Shown: piece by piece, positions 751 through 30,913 of the stretch
Position numbering within the stretch: the stretch's first letter is position 1
How the letters are laid out: each line of letters starts with the position of its first letter
NCBI GenBank assembly: GCA_041662545.1
Contig: JBAZSH010000002.1
Location: forward strand, 2,239-66,238
Direction of reading: 5' to 3'
Origin: Minisyncoccota bacterium
GTDB taxonomy: Bacteria; Patescibacteriota; Minisyncoccia; Phycocordibacterales; DSPV01
Length of the DNA: 64,000 nucleotides
Made by a program: the position numbers and the translations under genes
Notes under the pieces: generated by a model
The model's database searches: none
What the model saw: the letters and a program-made list of their open reading frames with translations, nothing else
What the model was told of the DNA's origin: nothing

Positions 751-4052
<3,302 letters not shown>

Positions 4053-9979: not shown

Positions 9980-10738
9980 ATGGATTATCTTTGGGGTTTA
10001 TTTATTTTGGCGATTGGGGCAATAGTAGGTAGTTTTTTGAATGTGGTTGCCTTACGATATGGCACAGGTAAATCGCCATTAACCGGTCGGTCGTTTTGTT
10101 CGGCTTGTAATAGAAAACTTTCTGCCGTTGATCTGGTGCCAGTTTTTAGTTTTATTTTTCTTGGTGGCAAGTGCCGAACTTGCAAGGCAAAAATTTCTTG
10201 GCAATATCCGCTAGTGGAAATCCTGACCGCTATTATTTTTCTTTTTCTGTTTAAGTCGCCATTGGCGCTGGTTGCTTGGTGTATTTTGATTGTTATTATG
10301 ATTTACGATTGGCGGCACAAAATTATTCCCGACGGTTTGGCTTTGGCTTTTGGTATTTTGACTTTAGTAATGGCGATTTTGGCCAATTTTGACGGTAACT
10401 TGTTTTTGGCGTTACTTTGGGGTCCACTTTTTGCCACGCCATTTTTCTTACTCTGGTATTTTTCCGGCGGCAAATGGATGGGTTTAGGCGACGCTAAACT
10501 CGGTTTGGGATTGGGCTGGCTTTTGGGCGTTAAAAGCTTTGACGCTTTTATTTGGGCCTTTTGGATTGGCGCGGCGGTTTCTTTGCTAATTGTTTTTTGG
10601 CAAAGCTGGCAAAAGAATCAGAAAAAGCTTACAATGAAGAGCGAAGTGCCGTTTGCCCCTTTTCTATTTGTGGCAACTTTTCTGGTTTATTTTTTCAATA
10701 TCAGCGCACTCGGTTTAATTAATAATTTATTTTATTAA
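9980..10738 (+). CDS. pilD: prepilin peptidase (A24 family, PilD-like)
   Basis: zinc-binding CSACNRK...CRTCK tetracysteine motif, multiple TM, catalytic Asp context. Confidence 0.8.
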   Translation: MDYLWGLFILAIGAIVGSFLNVVALRYGTGKSPLTGRSFCSACNRKLSAVDLVPVFSFIFLGGKCRTCKAKISWQYPLVEILTAIIFLFLFKSPLALVAWCILIVIMIYDWRHKIIPDGLALAFGILTLVMAILANFDGNLFLALLWGPLFATPFFLLWYFSGGKWMGLGDAKLGLGLGWLLGVKSFDAFIWAFWIGAAVSLLIVFWQSWQKNQKKLTMKSEVPFAPFLFVATFLVYFFNISALGLINNLFY

Positions 10739-11337
10739 TGTCACAGATTACACCTCACAGGTTGTCAAATAGTCGGGGTTTTACTCTCATTGAGACAATG
10801 GTTGCCTTGGGAATTTTTGTAATAGTTACCACCATTGTTTTCGTGGGTAATGGCCGTTTCAATAATACTCTTCTTTTGACCAACTTGGCTTACGATTTAG
10901 CATTAACCGTATCGCGAGCGCAATCCTATGGTATCAATGTCAGGCCATTTGACGATGCCACCAAGCCATTTGAGGTTGGCTATGGTGTTCATTTTAAGCT
11001 TGGTACTACAGTTGACCCCAAAGAATCAGATAAAGTTTCTTTTGTTTTATTTGCTGATATAAATAACAGTAAAAATTATACCACCGATGAATTTTTGGAG
11101 CGTTATCTTATTCGTCACGGTAATAAAATCAGTAAACTCTGGTTCACTTCTGATGGTAATTCGATTAATGAACTTAATATTACTTTCCTTAGGCCCAATC
11201 CCGATGCTATATTTAACTGTGTTGGTTGTTCTGGCGCTAGTAAAGTTGGCATAGAGGTTTCTTCAGCGGATGGTGTTACCACAAAAGTTATTACTATTGA
11301 ATCAACGGGACAAATTTCCGTTCAGTCAAAAATATGA
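10738..11337 (+). CDS. type IV pilin-like (class III signal peptide) protein
   Basis: leader ending ...SRG|FTLIETMVALGIFVIV prepilin N-methylation motif. Confidence 0.75.
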   Translation: MSQITPHRLSNSRGFTLIETMVALGIFVIVTTIVFVGNGRFNNTLLLTNLAYDLALTVSRAQSYGINVRPFDDATKPFEVGYGVHFKLGTTVDPKESDKVSFVLFADINNSKNYTTDEFLERYLIRHGNKISKLWFTSDGNSINELNITFLRPNPDAIFNCVGCSGASKVGIEVSSADGVTTKVITIESTGQISVQSKI

Positions 11338-11858
11338 ATTGGAACTTGGAACTTGGAACTTGGAAATTCCGCGCCAGCGGCGGGTTCAGTTTAGTGGAGA
11401 TTCTTGTTTCCCTCGCCATTTTTTCTGTGGTGATGGTAACGGCCGCAGGTGCTTTATTAACAACTATTGATGCCAACCACAAAGCTCAAGCTGTTCAATT
11501 AGCAGTGAATAATTTAAGTTTTGCTTTGGAAAGTATGTCGCGACCGATTCGGGAAGGCAATAGTTATCCTGCGGATGGAGTCAGTAGTTCCTTCACTTTC
11601 AAAAAAAATGATAGTAGTGAAGTTTCTTATTATTTAGACAATGGCCGAATTATGCGAAAAGAGGGGGGCAATTTAGCTCAAGCCATTACCTCATTAGGAG
11701 TTACGGTAACTAAATTAGCGTTTTATGTAAGTGGATCAAGTGATCCAAAAAAACAACCACTGGTAACGATTGTTATTCAAGGCACAGCTGGTGAGACGGC
11801 AAAAATCCAGACCACATTTAATTTGCAAACGACTTTATCACAAAGAATACCAAGATGA
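11334..11858 (+). CDS. type IV pilin-like protein
   Basis: ...ASGG|FSLVEILVSLAIF prepilin motif. Confidence 0.75.
   Translation: MNWNLELGTWKFRASGGFSLVEILVSLAIFSVVMVTAAGALLTTIDANHKAQAVQLAVNNLSFALESMSRPIREGNSYPADGVSSSFTFKKNDSSEVSYYLDNGRIMRKEGGNLAQAITSLGVTVTKLAFYVSGSSDPKKQPLVTIVIQGTAGETAKIQTTFNLQTTLSQRIPR
11339..11366 (+). repeat. tandem octamer repeat (tggaactt x3) inside pilin leader coding region
   Basis: aattggaacttggaacttggaacttggaaatt read directly. Confidence 0.9.
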
Positions 11859-12400
11859 TAAAAAACACAAAAAAAGGATTTACGCTTATAGAAACTCTGG
11901 TGGCAATTGCGATTTTGCTTTTGGCAGTAACAGCACCTTTGTCATTGGCGAATAAGAGTTTGAATTCTGCTTCTTTGTCAAAACAACAGATCATCGCTAG
12001 CTTTTTGGCGCAGGAAGCGATGGAATATATTCGCAATGTCCGTGATGAAAATGTTCTCAAACACAATGGCAGTTGGTTGCACCCAGATAGTGGTATTCAG
12101 TTTTGTTTCAACGGCAAATGCACCGTGGAACCGACGGGCACTTCTGGCACTGATAAAATAAAAAAGTGTCAGGAAACAGGTGGTAGTTGTCTACCATTGC
12201 GATTTGATCCATCAAATGGTGTTTATAGTTATTCTGACGGTGGCGACACCGAAGAATCCATTTACACCCGTTTTGCGCAAATGGACGAAATAGAAAATGA
12301 CGAAGAGGTGGCGGTCTTGGTGACGGTCTCGTGGCAGGGAACAAATGGCGCGAATTATGAAGTCGTCGCCCGTGAGAATTTAACCAATTGGCAATTTTAA
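11855..12400 (+). CDS. type IV pilin-like protein
   Basis: KKG|FTLIETLVAIAILLLAV prepilin motif. Confidence 0.75.
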   Translation: MIKNTKKGFTLIETLVAIAILLLAVTAPLSLANKSLNSASLSKQQIIASFLAQEAMEYIRNVRDENVLKHNGSWLHPDSGIQFCFNGKCTVEPTGTSGTDKIKKCQETGGSCLPLRFDPSNGVYSYSDGGDTEESIYTRFAQMDEIENDEEVAVLVTVSWQGTNGANYEVVARENLTNWQF

Positions 12401-14984: not shown

Positions 14985-17405
14985 ATGGACAAAAATAAAG
15001 CAAACATAATTTGGTTTAAGGATTTGGGAATTGAGGATGTGCCGATTGTCGGCGGTAAGAACGCGGCATTGGGTGAAATGTTTGCTAACCTAACCCAGCT
15101 CGGTATTAATGTGCCGAATGGTTTTGCCATCACCGCCCAGGCCTATAACAACTTTTTGGACAAAGCCGGCATTCGGGTGGGTATGGAAAAAATTCTAAAA
15201 GATTTAGACACTGGTAATATGCGAGCGTTACAGAAAGCCGGCAAGCAAACCCGTAAATTAATTTTGAAAAGTAATTTGCCGAAAGAATTGGAATATGAAA
15301 TTGCCGCCGCCTATAAAGAATTAGGCAAGCAATTTGGTACCGAAGAGCCGGATGTGGCCGTGCGTTCGTCGGCAACAGCAGAGGATTTACCCGACGCTAG
15401 TTTTGCTGGTCAGCAAGAAACTTATTTGAATATCGTTGGTGTTAAAGATTTGCTTTACGCTGTTAAAGAATGTATCGCTTCGCTTTTTACCGATCGGGCA
15501 ATTTCTTACAGAAAAGACAAGGGATTTTCTAGTACGGGAGTGGCGCTGTCGGTGGGTGTGCAAAAAATGGCGCGCGCCGACAAAGGCATTTCAGGTGTGG
15601 CTTTTTCTATTGATACCGAAACCGGTTTTGATAAGGTGGTGGTTATTGATGCTTCCTACGGTTTGGGTGAAATGATTGTTCAAGGCAAGGTAACGCCGGA
15701 CGAATTTGTAGTTTTTAAGCCGACATTGGCTGAAGGCAAACGCGCCATCATTGCCCGCGACATTGGAGTGAAAGATGTGAAAATGATTTATGGTCGTAGG
15801 GGGACTGAAATTGTAAAAACTTCACCGGCCGAGCAGGCGGTATTGTGTTTAACTGATGATGAGATTTTGAAATTGGCTGATTGGGTCGTAAAAATTGAAA
15901 AATATTTTTCCGATAAAAAAGGCCATTATCAGCCGATGGACACCGAATGGGCGAAAGATGGTGTTTCGGGAGAATTATTTATTGTCCAAGCTCGGCCGGA
16001 AACGGTTCAGGCGATGCGTGATAAAACTCTTTACATTGAGTATCGTTTGAAAGAAAAGGGGAAAGTTTTGACGACCGGCACAGCAGTGGGCGCAAAAATT
16101 TCCACCGGGAAAGTGCGAGTGATCCGCGATGCGAAAAATATCGGTCGGTTTCAAAAAGGTGAAGTTTTGGTAACGGAAATTACTGATCCTGATTGGGAAC
16201 CGATTATGAAAATTGCCAGCGCTATTGTCACTGACAAAGGTGGTCGCACCAGCCACGCGGCCATTGTTTCGCGCGAGTTGGGCATCACTTGTATTGTTGG
16301 CGCTGTTAATGCCACTAAAGTTTTGCGTGATGGTATGGAAGTAACAGTAGATTCGTCGGGTCCAGTTGGTTCTGTTTATGAAGGTAATTTACCGTTTGAA
16401 AAAATTGAGCATCGCTTAGATAAAATTCCCGAGACCAAGACCAAAATTATGGTCAATATCGGTTCTCCCGATGAGGCCTTTGAAAAATGGCAATTGCCGG
16501 TGAAAGGTGTTGGTTTGGGGCGATTGGAATTTATCATTACCGAGCATATTAAAATTCACCCTAACGCTCTGATTGATTATGAAAAATTGAAAGCCGATTC
16601 TGGTAATGCTGAAAAACAGAAAATCGTTCAGGAAATTGATAAGCTAACCGTTGGCTATACCAACAAGACCGATTTCTATGTTAGCGAATTGGCCGAGGGC
16701 GTGGCAAAAATCGCCGCTGCTTTTTACCCCCACGAAGTGATCATTCGTTTTTCTGATTTCAAAACAAATGAATACCGAACTTTGGTTGGTGGCGCGCTTT
16801 ACGAGCCGGTTGAAGAAAATCCAATGATCGGTTGGCGTGGCGCTTCAAGATACTATGATCTTAAGTTTAAAGAAGCGTTCGGCTTGGAATGCCGGGCCTT
16901 AAAAAAAGTGCGTGAGGAAATCGGTTTGAAGAATGTTTCTACCCTAATTCCATTTTGTCGGACGCCGGAAGAAGGCAAACAGGTTTTGGAAGCGATGAAA
17001 ATTAATGGTTTGGAACGCGGCCAAAATGATCTCAAGGTTTACATTATGTGCGAGATTCCTTCCAACATTCTTTTGGCGGACGAGTTTTTGGAAATTTGTG
17101 ATGGTATGTCTATTGGCTCAAATGATTTGACCCAACTAACACTTGGTTTGGATCGGGACTCGGGTATTGTTGCCAAGATTGCCAATGAAAGAAATCCGGC
17201 GGTGAAAAAACTTATTGCCGAGATTATTAAAAAGTGTAAAGAAAAAAATAAATACATCGGTATTTGCGGCCAAGCGCCTTCCGATTTTCCTGATTATGCT
17301 GAGTTTTTGGTGGAGCAGGGAATTGAGAGTATCTCCTTAAATCCCGATACCATTATCAAAACTTTGGAATTAGTGGCGGAGAAAGAAAAACAACTTGGCA
17401 AGTAG
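14985..17405 (+). CDS. ppsA: phosphoenolpyruvate synthase (pyruvate, water dikinase)
   Basis: N-terminal ATP-grasp (VAVRSSATAEDLPDASFAGQ), mobile His domain (GGRTSHAAIVSRELGITCIVG), C-terminal PEP-binding TIM barrel. Confidence 0.85.
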   Translation: MDKNKANIIWFKDLGIEDVPIVGGKNAALGEMFANLTQLGINVPNGFAITAQAYNNFLDKAGIRVGMEKILKDLDTGNMRALQKAGKQTRKLILKSNLPKELEYEIAAAYKELGKQFGTEEPDVAVRSSATAEDLPDASFAGQQETYLNIVGVKDLLYAVKECIASLFTDRAISYRKDKGFSSTGVALSVGVQKMARADKGISGVAFSIDTETGFDKVVVIDASYGLGEMIVQGKVTPDEFVVFKPTLAEGKRAIIARDIGVKDVKMIYGRRGTEIVKTSPAEQAVLCLTDDEILKLADWVVKIEKYFSDKKGHYQPMDTEWAKDGVSGELFIVQARPETVQAMRDKTLYIEYRLKEKGKVLTTGTAVGAKISTGKVRVIRDAKNIGRFQKGEVLVTEITDPDWEPIMKIASAIVTDKGGRTSHAAIVSRELGITCIVGAVNATKVLRDGMEVTVDSSGPVGSVYEGNLPFEKIEHRLDKIPETKTKIMVNIGSPDEAFEKWQLPVKGVGLGRLEFIITEHIKIHPNALIDYEKLKADSGNAEKQKIVQEIDKLTVGYTNKTDFYVSELAEGVAKIAAAFYPHEVIIRFSDFKTNEYRTLVGGALYEPVEENPMIGWRGASRYYDLKFKEAFGLECRALKKVREEIGLKNVSTLIPFCRTPEEGKQVLEAMKINGLERGQNDLKVYIMCEIPSNILLADEFLEICDGMSIGSNDLTQLTLGLDRDSGIVAKIANERNPAVKKLIAEIIKKCKEKNKYIGICGQAPSDFPDYAEFLVEQGIESISLNPDTIIKTLELVAEKEKQLGK

Positions 17406-17433
17406 CCATTATTCTTGTAGTTTAATTGTTGTT

Positions 17434-17517
17434 GCCGTGGTGGCGGAATTGGTATACGCGCTGCGTTCAGGACGCAGTTCCAGCAATGGATTGAGAGTTC
17501 AAATCTCTCCCACGGCA
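17434..17517 (+). tRNA. tRNA-Leu (anticodon CAG)
   Basis: 84 nt cloverleaf with long variable arm; anticodon loop cTTCAGGAc; acceptor gccgtgg/cacggc. Confidence 0.8.
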
Positions 17518-17670
17518 TTGGTTTGACCAGTGATTATAGGGTTGACAGATTTTGTGGGGTGTGCTAGGCTATTGGCAGTTAATTAAAACAGGGTGTTCTA
17601 GTCACTCTGTTTTCGTTCCAAAAAAACAAACGCGATTTACTAGGAATCGCAAAATTCCTGAAAGGATCAA

Positions 17671-17965
17671 AATGAAAAAGTTTCTGAACTTCCTGAAGTC
17701 CCTTCTTGGTCTCGGTCGCCGGACTGAAATGCCTCAATTGGTGTCGGTGGAAACATTCTTGGTGCCGGAGAGACAGGTGCCGGTGCGGGTCCGTCCGTTG
17801 ACCTGTGCTCCAATTAAACCAGAAGGAAAAAAGGTTCGATTCGTCACTCGTCGTGGCCACCAAATGGTGGCGGAAATTGTTGACCGAAATGGCGGTGGGG
17901 AAGTTTTTCTCCGCCGACCACACCACCGTTTTGGCCCGACCTTTCGCCGGGTTTTGGTTGAATAG
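17671..17965 (+). CDS. small hypothetical protein (98 aa)
   Basis: ATG preceded by AAAGGA; followed by strong terminator; track ORF 17552 start rejected. Confidence 0.4.
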
Positions 17966-17982
17966 GGGATTCAGTTTGGTAA

Positions 17983-18018
17983 GGCCCTGCTTCGTTGCGA
18001 AGCAGGGCCGTTCTTTTT
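17983..18018 (+). terminator. rho-independent terminator
   Basis: ggccctgcttcgttgcgaagcagggcc + TTCTTTTT. Confidence 0.7.
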
Positions 18019-18033
18019 ATATACCCGATGGAC

Positions 18034-18063
18034 TTGACAAATTGTCAAGGATTTGCTAAGATA
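18034..18063 (+). promoter_or_regulatory. sigma70-like promoter with perfect palindrome TTGACAAaTTGTCAA over the -35
   Basis: TTGACA(18034)-18nt-TAAGAT(18058); inverted repeat 18034-18048. Confidence 0.5.
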
Positions 18064-18180
18064 TTAACAGATTGAACATCGGAAATTCTGGCAAGTTTTC
18101 AGCGCGGTTGCGTTGAAAATGCTAAACAGCAAGTCGGGATTTTATCCGATGTTCGCAGTAAATTGAAAGGTTAAATAAAA

Positions 18181-18927
18181 GTGAAAACTTACACATTCGC
18201 GAGTGGATCGGTTAGTCGGGGTTTTGTCCTGACTGAAGACGAGAAACGCGGGCCGACACTGACCTTGGGCGAATACGGTCCAGGATCGTGGGCGGTCTGG
18301 ATTCCTTTGAACAGGATTCCGGAAAACGCGCCGGTAATCAATGGCAATGTCGTGCAGGATGCTTTCCTGCTGAATGCCAGCCAGAATGATCAACCATTCT
18401 TTGTCTTGTCGAAAGATAAGAGCCAAAGTAACGGTTGTTGCCTAATCCGTTTCCTCACCATTGGCGAGGGCGGTAAGGGTAACGGTTATGTTGACCGGAT
18501 CACAGGTTTCCGGTCCAAGAGATTGGCAGGGGGCCACGGTCGAAACAGTGGCATCACTCCCACCAATGGCACATGGAGCGACGAGATCTGGGTCGTCCAC
18601 GAGCGGGAGCTCGTGCGAGTCCAGCTCGCCGGATGCGAAACGGCTTTCGCCGTTCGCGTCTGCAATGGTGAACCCACGGTGGAACCGTGGGTTGAGCGCG
18701 AACCCCGCCAGAAACCGCAGTCGTCCGACAATGGTGGTGGCAAGCACCAGTGGCGGACCCTCAAGGGTTCGCACGTGGCTCCTGAGCCAGCTTGGTCGCC
18801 GGGCATCGATGCGATCGAGCCGGAACAAACTGAGTTCGACGCCGAACTCGAGGAAATGGCGCGAGCCACTAGTGGTCGGCGGGCAGGAACAAAAACTTGT
18901 CGCCCCGACCAGTTGGTCATGGCCTAA
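18181..18927 (+). CDS. GC-rich (~60% GC) orphan hypothetical protein, GTG start
   Basis: 248-aa ORF with GC3-skewed codons in a ~40% GC genome; RBS AAAGG upstream; flanked by terminators at 17983-18018 and 18947-18980. Confidence 0.45.
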   Translation: MKTYTFASGSVSRGFVLTEDEKRGPTLTLGEYGPGSWAVWIPLNRIPENAPVINGNVVQDAFLLNASQNDQPFFVLSKDKSQSNGCCLIRFLTIGEGGKGNGYVDRITGFRSKRLAGGHGRNSGITPTNGTWSDEIWVVHERELVRVQLAGCETAFAVRVCNGEPTVEPWVEREPRQKPQSSDNGGGKHQWRTLKGSHVAPEPAWSPGIDAIEPEQTEFDAELEEMARATSGRRAGTKTCRPDQLVMA

Positions 18928-18946
18928 GCCAGACCGCGATATCACG

Positions 18947-18980
18947 CCCCTCCGATGAACATCGGAGGGGTTTTTGTTTT
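18947..18980 (+). terminator. rho-independent terminator
   Basis: cccctccgatgaacatcggagggg + TTTTTGTTTTT. Confidence 0.75.
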
Positions 18981-19134
18981 TAGATTTAATTCCTCCTTTG
19001 TAAAAGGAGGTGCCCGAAGGGCGGAGGATTTTAAAATCCCCCCGGCTTTCAGCCACCCCCTTTTTCAAAGGGGGATTCCAGAGAAAGGGATTTAAATTCC
19101 AAAGGGAGATTTTTTATGCTACCATAACCACATT

Positions 19135-21609
19135 ATGGGAGTTTTTTCCAAGATTTTTGGCGATGAAAATGAAAAAGCGGTAAAAGTGATTCAGCCCTTG
19201 GTGGCGAAAATCAACGCTTTGGAGCCGGAGTTTGAAAAACTTTCGGCGGAGGATTTGCGCGCCAAAACCGATGAATTTAAAAAACGCCTGGCGGCTGGAG
19301 AAACTTTAGATGACATTTTACCGGAAGCTTTTGCCGTTGTCCGTGAATCAGCAAAGCGAACGCTTGGCCAAAGACATTTTGATGTGCAATTAATTGGTGG
19401 CGTGATTTTACATCGCGGCGGTATTGCCGAAATGAAAACTGGTGAAGGTAAAACTTTGGTCGCTACTCTGCCGGTTTATTTAAATGCTCTGGAGGGTAAA
19501 GGTGTTCATATTGTTACCGTCAACGATTATCTTTCTCGCCGCGATGCTGTTTGGATGGGGCAGATTTACAATTATCTTGGACTTTCGGTTGGAGTGATAA
19601 ATCATGAATCTAGTTTTCTCTATGATCCAACTCACACCGAAGCGGACCAAACTCGCGACGAGCTCGGCTCTTTTAAAGTGGTCCATGAATTTTTGCGGCC
19701 GGTGACTAGACGAGAGGCCTATCAAGCCGATATTACTTATGGGACAAATAATGAATTTGGTTTTGATTATTTGCGCGACAATTTGGAATATGAAGAAACG
19801 GTTTTGCGTCAGCGCGATTACCACTTTGCCATCGTTGACGAAATTGATTCCATTTTAATTGACGAGGCGCGGACGCCTTTAATTATTTCCGCGCCTACTA
19901 GCGAATCGGAAGATTTGTATCGCAAATTTGCCGGCATTGCTCGAACATTGGTAAAAGAGAAAGATTTTACCGTTGACGAAAAATTTCGCTCCATTGCTAT
20001 GACTCAAGAAGGCATTGACCAAGTAGAGAAATCTTTGGGCGTGGGCAATATTTACACCGAAGGTGGAATGAAATTTGTTCATCATTTGGAAACGGCGGTG
20101 CGAGCGGAGGCGCTTTTTCGCAATGATAAAGAGTATGTCGTTAAAAACGGTGAAATTGTAATCGTGGATGAATTTACCGGTCGGCTTCAGCCGGGTCGGC
20201 GTTGGAGCGAGGGCTTACACCAAGCCATTGAAGCCAAAGAAGGAGTTCAAGTGCAAAAAGAGTCGCGGACTTTTGCTAGCATTACTTTCCAAAATTATTT
20301 TCGGCTCTATAAAAAGCTTTCCGGTATGACTGGCACGGCGGTAACTTCCAAAGAAGAATTTTTGAAAGTTTATGGTTTGAATGTTGTTTCAATCCCAACT
20401 AATCAACCATTGGTGCGTCATGATTTGAATGATGTAATTTTCAAAACCGAGCACGGCAAGTTTATCGCTCTGGCGCGACGAGTAAAAGAATTAAATAAAA
20501 AAGAACAGCCGGTTTTGATTGGCACAGTTTCCATTGAAAAAAATGAAGAGTTGTCGCAATACCTGCAAAGAGAAGGAATAAAGCATGAAATTTTGAATGC
20601 CAAAAATCACGAAAGAGAGGGTGAAATTATTGCCCAAGCTGGCCGGCGCGCCGCCGTGACCATTGCTACTAATATGGCTGGCCGAGGAGTGGACATTAAA
20701 TTAGGTGGTAATCCGACCTCGCCCGAAGAAATGAAAATGGTTCGAGATGTTGGCGGTTTGGTGGTATTGGGAACAGAACGGCACGAAGCTCGGCGTATTG
20801 ATAATCAGTTGCGTGGTCGTTCCGGCCGGCAAGGCGATCCGGGCGAAACGCAATTTTTCGTCTCTTTGGAAGATAATTTATTGCGAGTTTTTGCCGTGGA
20901 CACCATTAAAAAAGTGATGGGTTTTTTGAAGGTGGCCGAGGACGAACCGATTGCCAATAATATGATTAGCAAATCATTGGAAACCGCCCAAACGAAAATT
21001 GAAGGTTTTAATTTTGACGCTCGCAAACATATTTTGGAATACGATGATGTCTTGAATCATCAAAGAAAAACTATTTATGACCGACGAAGAAAAATTTTGA
21101 CTGGCGGTGGGGAAGCGGTAGATGAATATTTGGAAAATCTGGCGAGTGGCTTGCCGGTGGAAGAGGCGGAAAAATTGGAGAAATTGATTGCGGAAAAAAG
21201 AACTGCCTTGGGCAATGATTTTTATTTGGCGCTTAAACGGATGATTTTACAGACCATTGATATGTTTTGGGTGGAGCATTTAGAATTAATGGATTACACC
21301 CGTTCATCAGTTAATTTGCGGGCTTATGGTCAGCGCGATCCATTGGTGGAATACAAGCGTGAGGGTTTACGATTGTTTAAAGAAATGGAAGAAGCGGCGC
21401 GGGCGCAAGTAATTCGATTAATCCCCAATCTCGCTGCCGGTATGGGCGCGGTTTCGGTGGAGCAGAAAAACTTGCGGGAGGTGGAACGCCAAGCTCAAGA
21501 AATAGGAAATGTTACAAAATCATCCACTGGTGACAAAAAAACCGTTGGCCGAAATGACCCCTGTCCTTGTGGTTCGGGAAAGAAATTTAAGAAGTGTCAT
21601 GGGAAGTAG
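19135..21609 (+). CDS. secA: preprotein translocase ATPase SecA
   Basis: DEAD-motor Walker A (MKTGEGKT), C-terminal Zn-binding CPCGSGKKFKKCHG. Confidence 0.95.
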   Translation: MGVFSKIFGDENEKAVKVIQPLVAKINALEPEFEKLSAEDLRAKTDEFKKRLAAGETLDDILPEAFAVVRESAKRTLGQRHFDVQLIGGVILHRGGIAEMKTGEGKTLVATLPVYLNALEGKGVHIVTVNDYLSRRDAVWMGQIYNYLGLSVGVINHESSFLYDPTHTEADQTRDELGSFKVVHEFLRPVTRREAYQADITYGTNNEFGFDYLRDNLEYEETVLRQRDYHFAIVDEIDSILIDEARTPLIISAPTSESEDLYRKFAGIARTLVKEKDFTVDEKFRSIAMTQEGIDQVEKSLGVGNIYTEGGMKFVHHLETAVRAEALFRNDKEYVVKNGEIVIVDEFTGRLQPGRRWSEGLHQAIEAKEGVQVQKESRTFASITFQNYFRLYKKLSGMTGTAVTSKEEFLKVYGLNVVSIPTNQPLVRHDLNDVIFKTEHGKFIALARRVKELNKKEQPVLIGTVSIEKNEELSQYLQREGIKHEILNAKNHEREGEIIAQAGRRAAVTIATNMAGRGVDIKLGGNPTSPEEMKMVRDVGGLVVLGTERHEARRIDNQLRGRSGRQGDPGETQFFVSLEDNLLRVFAVDTIKKVMGFLKVAEDEPIANNMISKSLETAQTKIEGFNFDARKHILEYDDVLNHQRKTIYDRRRKILTGGGEAVDEYLENLASGLPVEEAEKLEKLIAEKRTALGNDFYLALKRMILQTIDMFWVEHLELMDYTRSSVNLRAYGQRDPLVEYKREGLRLFKEMEEAARAQVIRLIPNLAAGMGAVSVEQKNLREVERQAQEIGNVTKSSTGDKKTVGRNDPCPCGSGKKFKKCHGK

Positions 21610-28330: not shown

Positions 28331-30913
28331 ATGTTCAAAGTCAATTCGAATGATGTGTGGTCAATTACTAACGAGCGACATAATGCCAGTCCGTTATTGG
28401 GATTTCTTCCCTTGTTTTCTTCGATGACAATCGATATTGAGAAAATCCTTAACGTGGGTCTTAATTTAGAGTTTCTCGTTGAATTTTCCAATCGTCATGT
28501 CAGAATGGCGGCCGTAGCGTCGCATTGGGAAAAAGCAGGTTTGCTCACTGTCGAGAAGCTTAATGCTGTTGAGTTTGTGGACCAAATTACAAATGGTCTC
28601 GCAAATGGAACGGTTAATCTTAATCGTCTAGGCGACTTTCTTTATTTTGCTGATTTTTCAAAGTTTACGGATCACAATCTCGCAAAAGAGATTTCCGTAA
28701 TGGTAGATGTACTCGGTGATTTTATTGTTTTTAACAATATTATCAATACATCCGATTTTTACCATGAAGTATTCACTCGCAAAATATTGGAGTGTTTACG
28801 AACTTCTTTGGGTGTCGCTTCGTCTCTTAAAGCAGAGACAGTGTACTCTGTTTTAACAACTCCCGAGAAGACTGTGTGGATACAGGAAGAGGAGACCAGT
28901 TTGCTTGAAATTCTTACTCTGGTCTGTAAAAATCCTCGCCTTGTGTCTCTTGCGCATGATGAAAAATTAGATGAATTTTTCCATGGCGTCAGCAACATGT
29001 TTGGGTCGGAACTTGAGATGCATGTTAAAAAGTACTTCTGGATTCGGTACGAACAGGAAGGAGAAATTCTTTCTGGCAAACATTTTTGCAATGAACTAGC
29101 CAAAATGTTACGCGACGGAGTTGATGCTACAAACGCTTTAAATTCTGTTAATGAGAGAAGATTGCGTGCTAAAGAGCAATTTGACTCAATTAACTCGACG
29201 GTTGTTTTCAATTCCGAAGCAAAGCACTTACTTGAGGTAGCTCGTAAATTCGTTTACTGGAAACTTCATTTAAGAGAGGTGAAGGTACGATTTTATTGCT
29301 GCGCAGACAAGTTATTGGATGAGGCAGCAAAAAGGCTTAACCTGAACCGCTACCAAGTACGACACTTGACTGTCGAAGAGCTAACTGGTGCATTGTGCGG
29401 GACAATTCAACTGGATACTGTCTCCTTGGATAAGAGAATGGAATACAGCGTATTTTATTTTGCCTCGGGGTGTATTACAGTTTACGAAGGCCAGGATGCT
29501 CGGGATATTTTTAGTGTTGTCAAACAGGAATCTGTTGTTACCACAGATAGTGTTAGTGGTGTTTGTGCCTTTCCTGGTTTAGCGGAAGGCGTGGTAAAAC
29601 AAGTTCTTGATGTGAGTGATGGGGATAATTTTCTTCGAGGAAGTATCCTTGTTGCTTATATGACAGATGTTGGCGTTGTACCTGCTATGAAAAAAGCGAG
29701 TGCGATTGTCACAGATGTTGGCGGAGTTACATGTCACGCCTCAATCATTGCTCGTGAATTTGGTATTCCGTGTCTCATCGGAACAAAAATCGGAACCAAG
29801 GTTCTTCTGGATGGATATACCGCACGAGTGAATGCCACGGAGGGTTTTTCTAAGGTTTTATCCAAAGACGTTAATCCTCAAAAAGCATTAACTGCAAACT
29901 TAGCCGGAGATGAAGACTTGATCGTTTGTAACTTTCAGATTCCCGTGTCTGGTTTTTCAAGAAAAGAAGCCAGTCATGTTCGGAGTCTCCAAAAAACTCT
30001 TTCAAGTGATGTGCAAATCGCAGGAGGAAAAGGTGCTTCATTGGGGCAAATGCTACAATTGAGTTTACCTGTTCCAAAAGGGTTTGTCGTCCTAACATCA
30101 GCTTTCGAAGAGGTTTTCTTTGGAACCGAATACGGCGCGCGCATAAATCAACTTCTTCTTGAAATTCGTGATCAGCGCTCTCTGCGCCGAGTTTCGAAAA
30201 TGATTCAAGAGTTGGTTATCAATGTGGAAATTCCTTTCCAAATTGAACATGACATCAGGGATTCCTTTGCAGATCTGCCCTTTGACTATGTTGCGGTTCG
30301 TAGCTCGGCAACTTCCGAAGACTCGGCCACAGCATCTTGGGCGGGTCAACTTGATAGTTTTCTCAACACCACTCATGACGACTTATTACTTAATATTCGT
30401 CAGTGTTGGGCATCACTCTTTTCGGATCGTGCCATTTCGTATCGTATTCATTGCGATTCGAAAGACATGTCCGTTGCCGTTGTGGTTCAAGGAATGCTTG
30501 ATAGTCGAATTTCGGGAACTGCATTCTCTGTGCATCCGGTTACAGGACAGAGCGATGTCATTCTCATCGAGAGCTGTATTGGTCTTGGTGAGACGCTCGT
30601 TCTCGGAAAAGAGATGCCAACCACATTCCTTGTGAAAAAAGATAGTTTAGCTATCTCTCATAAGGATGTCGGTGAACAGAAAAATGGTTTGAGGCGTTCT
30701 GCCAACGGAAAGGGAAATGAGTTGTTTGTGGTGGATTTTACTATGCAGCCTCTTTCCGATTTGGAAGCAAAAGAAGTAGCTCGACTCGTCATTGATGTTG
30801 AGCAAAAATTTGGCTTCCCTGTTGATGTTGAGTGGGCGTACGAAGGGAATTGTCTTTGCTTACTGCAAAGTCGTCCCATCACTACAACGTCAAAGATTCC
30901 AAAAGTTCAATAA
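28331..30913 (+). CDS. PEP-utilizing-enzyme family dikinase-like protein with permuted domain order (helical N-domain - phospho-His swivel domain - C-terminal ATP-grasp)
   Basis: His domain VTDVGGVTCHASIIAREFGIPCLIGT at ~aa 460-490; PPDK_N-type ATP-grasp at C-terminus (GGKGASLGQM, VAVRSSATSEDSATASWAGQ, VVVQGML, SCIGLGETLV). Confidence 0.7.
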   Translation: MFKVNSNDVWSITNERHNASPLLGFLPLFSSMTIDIEKILNVGLNLEFLVEFSNRHVRMAAVASHWEKAGLLTVEKLNAVEFVDQITNGLANGTVNLNRLGDFLYFADFSKFTDHNLAKEISVMVDVLGDFIVFNNIINTSDFYHEVFTRKILECLRTSLGVASSLKAETVYSVLTTPEKTVWIQEEETSLLEILTLVCKNPRLVSLAHDEKLDEFFHGVSNMFGSELEMHVKKYFWIRYEQEGEILSGKHFCNELAKMLRDGVDATNALNSVNERRLRAKEQFDSINSTVVFNSEAKHLLEVARKFVYWKLHLREVKVRFYCCADKLLDEAAKRLNLNRYQVRHLTVEELTGALCGTIQLDTVSLDKRMEYSVFYFASGCITVYEGQDARDIFSVVKQESVVTTDSVSGVCAFPGLAEGVVKQVLDVSDGDNFLRGSILVAYMTDVGVVPAMKKASAIVTDVGGVTCHASIIAREFGIPCLIGTKIGTKVLLDGYTARVNATEGFSKVLSKDVNPQKALTANLAGDEDLIVCNFQIPVSGFSRKEASHVRSLQKTLSSDVQIAGGKGASLGQMLQLSLPVPKGFVVLTSAFEEVFFGTEYGARINQLLLEIRDQRSLRRVSKMIQELVINVEIPFQIEHDIRDSFADLPFDYVAVRSSATSEDSATASWAGQLDSFLNTTHDDLLLNIRQCWASLFSDRAISYRIHCDSKDMSVAVVVQGMLDSRISGTAFSVHPVTGQSDVILIESCIGLGETLVLGKEMPTTFLVKKDSLAISHKDVGEQKNGLRRSANGKGNELFVVDFTMQPLSDLEAKEVARLVIDVEQKFGFPVDVEWAYEGNCLCLLQSRPITTTSKIPKVQ

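Follow-up and report, generated by a model that had tools for sequence, protein, structure and literature searches.

A probably long-resident GC-rich gene with a predicted structured leader RNA between tRNA-Leu(CAG) and secA in Taylorbacteria-like Parcubacteria

Is a gene whose base composition departs sharply from that of its genome a recent arrival? The question is raised by positions 18034-18980 of a 64,000-nucleotide stretch from a Minisyncoccota bacterium (assembly GCA_041662545.1, contig JBAZSH010000002.1; the whole stretch is referred to as the window hereafter), where a single GC-rich open reading frame (ORF) lies at 18181-18927 on the forward strand. A preliminary description of this DNA took it for an orphan gene likely acquired horizontally from a high-GC donor. 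We think it probable that 18034-18980 is a self-contained one-gene unit that Taylorbacteria-like Parcubacteria (Patescibacteria, candidate phyla radiation or CPR) have long kept between tRNA-Leu(CAG) and secA. The unit would produce an mRNA for a lineage-specific protein, headed by a structured leader that acts in cis. Its RNA motif appears to be undescribed, its predicted fold is unmatched and its GC excess, seemingly maintained, extends to the wider family; a literature search found nothing relevant.

The gene is no orphan. Among 5.8 billion proteins searched there are 17 clusters of close homologues that are 52-100% identical to the window protein, with query coverage of 72-100% (at least 84% in all but one), and those clusters that are named all belong to Patescibacteria, Parcubacteria or Paceibacterota, one genome match being a Candidatus Taylorbacteria assembly. 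A wider, exhaustive profile-free search identified 47 representative clusters at E<=0.001, 11 of them at E<=1e-10, which match from residue 1 to about residue 150-190. The window protein belongs to a short-form (Taylorbacteria-type) family with full-length similarity, 43 invariant alignment columns and the invariant motifs LGE..(S), GHGR, W.D.(V)WV and VQ(L)(A)G. In all nine distinct Parcubacteria (Taylorbacteria-like) loci that were recovered, viz., the window, L001, L002, L005, L011, L012, L014, L015 and L016, the gene lies between ppsA/tRNA-Leu(CAG) and secA, and these nine, which include both leader variants described below, are the sample for the comparisons that follow. The tRNA-Leu(CAG) gene, a conserved upstream neighbour (17433-17518 on the forward strand, detected by ARAGORN and Rfam), precedes the gene in L001, L002, L005, L010 and L011, and the -35 box of the gene directly follows the tRNA in L001 and L015. 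Between loci, PpsA is 87-94% and SecA 84-95% identical, and the synonymous divergence (dS) of the flanks is about 1, and therefore the lineages are well separated. The gene itself has a dS of at least 0.8, exceeding 1 in nearly all pairs, such that synonymous sites are saturated in gene and flanks alike. Absence or relocation of the gene in close relatives was not seen, the position being the same in 9/9 loci, though empty sites were not searched for; and no copy of the short-form family in a viral or non-syntenic setting turned up in the GenBank phage collection (searched with tblastn), in IMG/VR or in a metagenome scan. Scanning IMG/VR for P0057 gave no match either. Taken together, the comparisons across loci point to a gene that is long-resident at a fixed site, with no recent foreign insertion. 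An ancient acquisition, for example from a phage, is possible given the single-domain relatives in viral contigs.

The compositional anomaly that prompted the idea of a foreign origin is real. The ORF has a GC content of 57.6% and a third-position GC (GC3) of 62.7%, against 41.8% GC for the window, 43.2% for ppsA and 43.8% for secA. When GC is computed in 300-nt segments (mean 41.7%, standard deviation 4.9%), the block peaks at 63.7%, which is the top value of the 64 kb, about 4.5 standard deviations over the mean and above the rRNA and RNase P regions that form the other GC peaks of the window. Among 55 long ORFs this is the strongest outlier, with a GC3 of 0.627 (the next being 0.478) and with 0.60 of its two-fold codons ending in G or C, compared with 0.16-0.47 in the others. 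Thus, the GC-rich block with GC3-skewed codons was described correctly, but its interpretation as the un-ameliorated signature of a donor does not hold. The orthologues have 54-59% GC and a GC3 of 57-66%, while their own secA and ppsA genes have 43-48% GC and a GC3 of 41-51%; each orthologue lies about 10 GC points above its flanks, and second-position GC (GC2) is raised too. From derived synonymous changes, the implied equilibrium GC3 is 0.58 in the gene and 0.42-0.43 in the flanks, an estimate obtained by a crude polarisation at near-consensus sites with only 30 changes in the gene. On this estimate, the GC excess is maintained and is not a fading donor signature. The codon shift is broad: AAC is used at 57% versus 24%, GAC at 71% versus 37% and CTC at 36% versus 7%, and the favoured codons comprise AAC, GAC, TTC, ATC, AAG, GAG, CTC and GTC and also CAG and AGG, whereas Tyr and Cys codons are not shifted. 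Such a pattern resembles GC pressure of a general kind and not tRNA matching. The possibility that the adjacent tRNA-Leu(CAG) supplies CTG codons was considered and rejected, as CTG rises to 22% from 9% yet CTC is the more enriched.

The gene is mosaic, and its rate of evolution is several times that of its neighbours. Its protein is 49-73% identical between loci, against 84-95% for PpsA and SecA. The L014 and L015 proteins are 82% identical in the N-terminal domain but 45% in the C-terminal part, and the corresponding DNA (L014 3385-4167 and L015 5001-5792) contains a recombination tract with 92-97% nucleotide identity over codons of about 30-105, outside which identity is 51-69% in the 5' and 3' parts of the gene; in secA it is mostly 77-91%. 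The comparison of the window with L012 shows the reverse, a divergent block of 54-60% identity within a background of about 80%. Further, leaders of type A and of type B each occur with both of the two forms of C-terminal tail, and the gene tree disagrees with the secA tree. Together, the tracts, the divergent block and the reassortment of leaders and tails indicate repeated recombination between lineages within the locus. Variation by a diversity-generating retroelement was rejected, as there is no template-like repeat and none of the ORFs between the tRNA gene and secA has the size of a reverse transcriptase.

What, then, could keep the GC content high? We propose that a process operating at the locus would sustain the excess. 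The foremost candidate is GC-biased repair, which would accompany the frequent recombination events to which the mosaic structure would also be due; selection on the mRNA would be an alternative cause. GC-biased gene conversion is a hypothesis for recombining bacterial genes. The locus resembles what that hypothesis describes in its clear recombination tracts and in a raised GC3 that is apparently at equilibrium, but differs in that 15-20 additional GC3 points in one gene are far above the effects usually described genome-wide. Even so, we favour GC-biased repair over selection on the mRNA and over allele replacement from a GC-richer mobile pool, both of which are weighed below once the wider relatives of the protein have been introduced.

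AlphaFold2, run with a 22-sequence alignment, predicts about 16 β-strands over residues 1-170 of the 248-residue protein, with mean confidence values per 10-residue block mostly between 87 and 97 and a single dip to 74 at residues 121-130. The N-terminal all-β domain (residues 1 to about 172) is encoded by 18181-18696 on the forward strand. It is followed by a low-confidence linker that carries the conserved motif NG..G..HQWRTLKGSHV, a short helix at residues 219-231 and a basic tail. The product had been described as lacking any recognisable motif. The window protein, the small upstream ORF described below, the long relatives and all members of the alignment are without matches in Pfam, PHROGs, PADLOC and NCBIfam; single-sequence and profile searches against the PDB likewise gave no match, and Foldseek found none for the predicted structure in BFVD. 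The all-β domain is thus predicted to have a fold with no known relatives. Read directly, the sequence shows no signal peptide or membrane segment at the N-terminus, because of which the protein is probably cytoplasmic.

Relatives of this domain occur in two other settings. Many relatives are 400-950 residues long with two tandem copies of the domain (for example, blastp matches both repeats of L026 and L027), and such long forms are chromosomal in many Patescibacteria including Falkowbacteria, Collierbacteria and Uhrbacteria, one lying in a 1.0-Mb contig. The long tandem-domain proteins (700-860 residues) share the all-β domain of about 170 residues with the window protein (E-values down to 5e-13; motifs LGE.GRG and GHG...G.W.D), and the three examined share its GC excess over the genome. 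They differ in having two domain copies and a C-terminal part of about 400 residues, in their genomic positions and in lacking the leader RNA, whereas the window protein has one domain and a short tail with a motif of its own. A structural model of one long relative has a predicted local distance difference test (pLDDT) score of 89.5, and only its helical segment matches generic bundles. Single-domain relatives, on the other hand, are found in the IMG/VR contigs L029-L033 and in the phage-like contigs L008 and L009, which are 16-162 kb long and predicted to be viral, near genes for RNase H, dCTP deaminase, ThyX and helicase, that is, of nucleotide metabolism and replication. These are 30-39% identical to the window protein over the best segment. 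The protein thus appears, from these sequence relationships, to belong to an unannotated superfamily shared by Patescibacteria and phages.

All three long relatives that were fetched (L026, L027 and L028) are GC-richer than their surroundings, by 11-20 points. The L026 gene, at 68.5% GC (GC3 91%) against 49%, sits in an island of about 6 kb with surroundings at about 44%; the L027 gene has 48.5% against 37%; and the L028 gene has about 63% against about 48%. Multi-gene GC-rich islands surround two of them (L026 5000-11000, 57-74% versus about 44%; L028 8000-13000, 51-65% versus about 48%). As a separate observation, a TrmB-family regulator gene lies upstream of the long relative in both L026 and L028, the two regulators being 33% identical, and the other island genes of these loci are unrelated to each other. 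A search for conserved partner genes thus found none: the small ORF upstream of the window gene is optional, and the island neighbours of the long relatives are unrelated bar this regulator at two loci.

These relatives lend some substance to a first competing explanation, in which the ancestor of the clade captured a phage gene long ago, after which recombination in the conserved flanks exchanged its alleles time and again for ones from a mobile pool richer in GC; the GC excess would then mirror the pool and not a bias acting in place. The single-domain relatives in viral and phage-like contigs of IMG/VR, the mosaic gene with a tree at odds with that of secA and the multi-gene GC-rich islands around the long relatives would all fit it. 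However, no viral or other non-syntenic copy of the short form was found, the leader and promoter accompany the gene in every locus, and the relatives in viral contigs are only distantly similar, at the identities given above, and mostly have the GC content of their own contig. We therefore consider this explanation unlikely, though it survives better than the others.

Slightly less likely is that the GC-rich codons were selected for very high expression, with the promoter, the 5' stem, the GC-rich body and the 3' hairpin together yielding an abundant, long-lived mRNA. A near-consensus promoter with an extended -10 element, a 5'-terminal structure and a strong terminator are what this explanation would lead one to expect, as is the preference for C-ending codons in Phe, Asn, Asp, His and Ile. 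It fits poorly with the fact that AAG, GAG, CAG, AGG and CTC are favoured too while Tyr and Cys codons are unshifted, and with the raised GC2. Also, the pilin-like genes of the window, which are perhaps highly expressed (this being an expectation only), have no such shift. These three genes carry the N-terminal methylation motif and follow a prepilin peptidase gene at 9980-12400 on the forward strand, and their codon usage is ordinary for the window.

The fast mosaic evolution at a fixed site and the phage relatives would also fit a role in conflict or interaction, although this is speculation. In its fullest form, which we regard as doubtful, the cassette would be the Taylorbacteria form of an unrecognised system of Patescibacteria and phages, in which a β-domain protein of a new fold is under frequency-dependent pressure (for example from phage-host or symbiont-host conflict), this pressure leads to hyper-recombination and thence, by biased gene conversion, to GC-rich islands, and expression is governed by a leader RNA of a new, sensing or protein-binding class.

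The second component of the proposed one-gene unit is its leader. An inverted repeat of 9 bp (gaacatcgg at 18074-18082 and ccgatgttc at 18146-18154) had been noted in the 5' untranslated region and is indeed present; it appears to be part of the closing stem, P1, of a three-way-junction RNA of about 85 nt. This structured 5' leader, at 18068-18158 on the forward strand, is predicted to consist of P1 (18073-18083/18145-18155), its extension P1b (18084-18092/18133-18141), P2 (18095-18105/18110-18120) and P3 (18121-18123/18128-18130). An unstructured A-rich linker (18159-18180, forward strand), unpaired in both the minimum free energy (MFE) and centroid folds, connects it to the GTG start and carries the Shine-Dalgarno sequence GAAAGG (18165-18170), at the equivalent place of which other loci have GGAG or GAAAGG. 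The leader of the window folds with an MFE of -38.9 kcal/mol (z = -5.6), and none of 200 shuffled sequences folds as well. The same architecture is obtained when each of the nine sequences is folded alone, and comprises a long P1, the P1b extension in variant A only, a P2 hairpin of 11-12 bp and an adjacent 3-bp P3 with a tetraloop. Variant A is found in the window, L001, L005, L011, L012 and L015, and variant B in L002, L014 and L016, and the P1 and P2 sequences of the two differ by compensatory changes. In a structural alignment made by hand, pairing is seen in 97% of the cells and double, compensatory changes in 11 of 37 pairs, compared with 33-50% paired and 0-3 double changes in slid controls. 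Alignment with a covariance model gives 95.4% paired and 13 pairs changed on both sides (0-3 in slid controls and 0/500 in shuffles), and RNAalifold on a plain MAFFT alignment independently recovers P2 with four compensatory pairs. A covariance model built from variant A only detects variant B with E-values of 0.0006-0.002 and nothing else in 210 kb of loci, and all nine matches of the leader pattern in a metagenome scan lie upstream of orthologues. No Rfam match was found for 18063-18160 even at E<=10 (4227 families), the window having also been scanned at gathering thresholds. A conserved upstream ORF in the leader was considered, as the ATG within GAAATGC opens an ORF of 15 codons in the window with in-frame extension in L001 and L005, and was rejected, for it has only two codons in variant B and the RNA structure explains the conservation better.

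The RNA would start about 3-5 nt before the three-way junction, and the leader would act in cis on the mRNA, most likely as a 5'-terminal structure that stabilises the message or binds a protein. A 5'-terminal element is favoured because the structure lies near the predicted start, the ribosome-binding site is unpaired, there is no terminator and few unpaired bases are conserved. Within the overall explanation, a stabilising or structural role is the leading option, with a chance approaching even, and protein-binding regulation is a weaker one, possible at somewhat long odds. The ompA and aprE leaders are 5'-terminal stabilising stem-loops of bacterial mRNAs, and the present leader resembles them in placing a very stable structure within a few nucleotides of the predicted start while leaving the ribosome-binding site free. 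It differs in being a conserved junction of four helices, beyond a simple hairpin. That the leader is a metabolite-sensing riboswitch controlling the gene we hold to be improbable. Like riboswitches and protein-binding leaders such as those of ribosomal-protein genes, it is a conserved multi-helix junction in a 5' untranslated region, with compensatory changes and linked to one gene family, and variant B carries an extra copy of the P1 5' strand (GTCAAAAC), from which a hairpin in competition with P1 might arise. Unlike them, it is without an expression platform: no T-run follows P1, the ribosome-binding site is free in the MFE and centroid folds, and neither this site nor a terminator takes part in an alternative pairing, which together with the paucity of conserved unpaired bases disfavours a metabolite switch. 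Invariance is confined to A-GTC after P3 and to parts of P2 and P3, albeit among just nine sequences, and the loops and junctions differ between variants A and B (GGTT versus TGTC, AAAC versus GTGA, and P1b present versus absent). Moreover, the RNA is tied to a single gene of unassigned function in one narrow clade.

The earlier proposal that the gene has a promoter, a structured leader and a terminator to itself agrees with our observations: all three are conserved in the orthologous loci, and the unit is autonomous. Transcription would start from a near-consensus sigma-70-type promoter on the forward strand (18034-18062), with the -35 box TTGACA at 18034-18039 and an extended -10 element, TGcTAAGAT, at 18054-18062, in which TG precedes the TAAGAT of 18057-18062. 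The boxes are those reported before, but the spacer is 17 nt and not 18. Although this is the sole promoter-like match in 17300-19300, the count alone is no better than in shuffled sequences (mean 1.4), and it is conservation that supports the promoter: TTGACA and TGCTAnGnT are invariant in 9/9 loci with the 17-nt spacing kept. A palindrome, TTGACAAATTGTCAA, overlaps the -35 box at 18034-18048 as described previously. Apart from the window, only L011 has it, in imperfect form, while the other seven loci keep the -35 and -10 elements without it, and therefore the conserved operator role suggested for it seems unlikely. From the promoter onward, the unpaired A-rich linker would present the ribosome-binding site and the GTG start, and a strong terminator would end the transcript. 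Terminators had been proposed on both sides of the gene, and both are found on the forward strand: the one that would end the upstream unit (17983-18018) is a perfect inverted repeat forming a 12-bp stem (17983-18009) with nine G-C pairs followed by a T-run, and that of the gene itself (18946-18980) has its stem at 18946-18971, also followed by a T-run. Downstream of the stop codon, 9/9 loci have a G+C-rich hairpin with a T-run, the stem sequences being different. An exact 11-nt repeat, TGAACATCGGA, occurs in the P1 5' strand (18073-18083) and in the terminator stem (18956-18966); a pairing signal between the two ends was considered and rejected, as the other loci do not conserve the repeat and chance could account for it within 1.8 kb.

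The original reading of this DNA, a recent transfer from a high-GC donor inserted beside the tRNA gene, is now very improbable. The unit does resemble tRNA-adjacent genomic islands in its strongly atypical composition, the adjoining tRNA-Leu gene, its own promoter and terminators and the intergenic DNA around it that varies between loci, and its distant relatives include some in phage-like contigs of 58-61% GC. Against this stand its presence at the same site in all the related loci examined, nine distinct ones whose flank dS is already about 1, and a GC excess that is common to all orthologues and has remained stable despite saturated synonymous sites, with no decay towards the GC content of the host genome. 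From the tRNA to secA, the ORF list contains nothing the size of an integrase or transposase and no further mobility gene, and near the gene no att-like direct repeat of the tRNA 3' end occurs, the only repeats being at most 16 nt long and compatible with chance. The conserved position largely refutes a recent transfer.

The ORF at 18181-18927 (forward strand; 248 residues, beginning MKTYTF...) is a real protein gene, as had been argued from its composition. This is established by its homologues, alignment and codon-level evolution. In codon alignments of the nine distinct orthologues, divergence at third positions is 0.37-0.63 and at first and second positions 0.14-0.37. The ratio of nonsynonymous to synonymous divergence (dN/dS) is 0.15-0.30 in 36/36 pairs, indicating purifying selection, and is below 0.4 in every 20-codon window, such that the poorly modelled C-terminal stretch is also under purifying selection. 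Two overlapping ORFs (18442-19068 on the reverse and 18461-18958 on the forward strand) exist, but the codon-position pattern backs the 18181 frame only. The idea that an overlapping antisense gene or an RNA structure restricts change in the coding region was rejected: the dS of the gene is not below that of the flanks, therefore nothing points to either inside the ORF, and the overlapping ORFs are artefacts, as was supposed initially. With regard to assembly, a separate contig (L019) is 100% identical to 17936-20630 of the window, which, as it possibly derives from the same data set, is weak proof alone; the gene order recurs in independent assemblies from four sources (ENA, JGI, NCBI and Logan), and therefore a chimeric assembly is excluded. 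Hence the notion that the block, instead of being a protein gene, represents a structured RNA without coding function or a chimera of the assembly, suggested by the GC-richness typical of structural RNAs in AT-rich genomes and by the rRNA and RNase P peaks of the window, can practically be dismissed, being already refuted by this codon-level evidence and contradicted also by the conserved motifs and in-frame indels of the protein alignment, by protein-level relatives at E-values down to 5e-20, by the lack of an Rfam match within the ORF and, for a chimera, by the recurrence of the arrangement.

A few neighbouring features of the window may be mentioned. Upstream of the unit, a small GC-rich accessory ORF (53% GC, forward strand) encodes 98 residues from a conserved Met at 17669-17965, within a longer ORF of 137 residues (17552-17965). 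It has homologues in L016 (61%), L014 (48%) and L005 (39%), with strong conservation of the C-terminal 55 residues (KKVRFVTRRGHQM..GGGEVFLRRPGHRFGPTFRRVL); tblastn found no match in L001, L002, L011 and L015, and the upstream sequence of L012 is too short to tell. It therefore seems to be an optional neighbour of the cassette. Between the terminator of the gene and secA lies an imperfect hairpin of about 85 nt (18991-19075, forward strand), within an intergenic stretch of 160 nt (18975-19134) that folds at -51 kcal/mol (z = -2.4). L001, L002 and L014 have a related sequence at this position, which L012 and L016 lack, and Rfam gives only weak, meaningless matches to miRNA models. In most loci, a conserved sequence, TTTTATGCTACCATA (19105-19137, forward strand), precedes the ATG of secA by 15-20 nt, which hints at a secA promoter whose leader would be very short. 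Farther away, the 23S rRNA gene (765-4037) contains a group I intron (3358-3641; Rfam score of 55 bits) overlapped by an ORF on the reverse strand (3500-3904), and a second paralogue of PEP-utilising enzymes is encoded at 28331-30913 on the forward strand, with PPDK_N at its C-terminal end and thus a domain order that is permuted with respect to ppsA (14985-17405).

Several considerations weigh against the interpretation as we have put it together. The covariation of the leader comes from only nine sequences in two variants and hence reflects few independent events, and the hand-made and model-based alignments both lean towards the structure. The promoter, the RNA start and the role of the leader are deduced for every member of the family, and the new fold rests on a prediction. 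The involvement of GC-biased conversion is reasoned from the mosaicism, and the equilibrium estimate is based on just 30 substitutions. Only three loci of long relatives were sampled for GC content, and the relatives in viral contigs mostly match the GC of their contig, L033 being the exception (51% versus 40%), therefore the GC excess is not a property of the protein as such. An old phage origin of the gene is also possible. Taking these points into account, a maintained one-gene unit with a cis-acting leader, a GC-raising process acting on the locus and a cytoplasmic protein of the shared superfamily probably remains the best explanation as a whole.

The strongest compositional outlier of the 64 kb thus appears to be a long-resident gene, and atypical GC content alone is a poor sign of recent transfer here. 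Three leads follow from the locus: a structured leader RNA that is absent from Rfam and backed by compensatory changes; a confidently predicted all-β domain without a relative in Pfam or the PDB that occurs across Patescibacteria and viral contigs; and a gene family that lies 10-20 GC points above the host genome despite saturated synonymous sites. The family may therefore serve as a test case for recombination-linked GC bias versus selection on the mRNA in bacteria with very small genomes.

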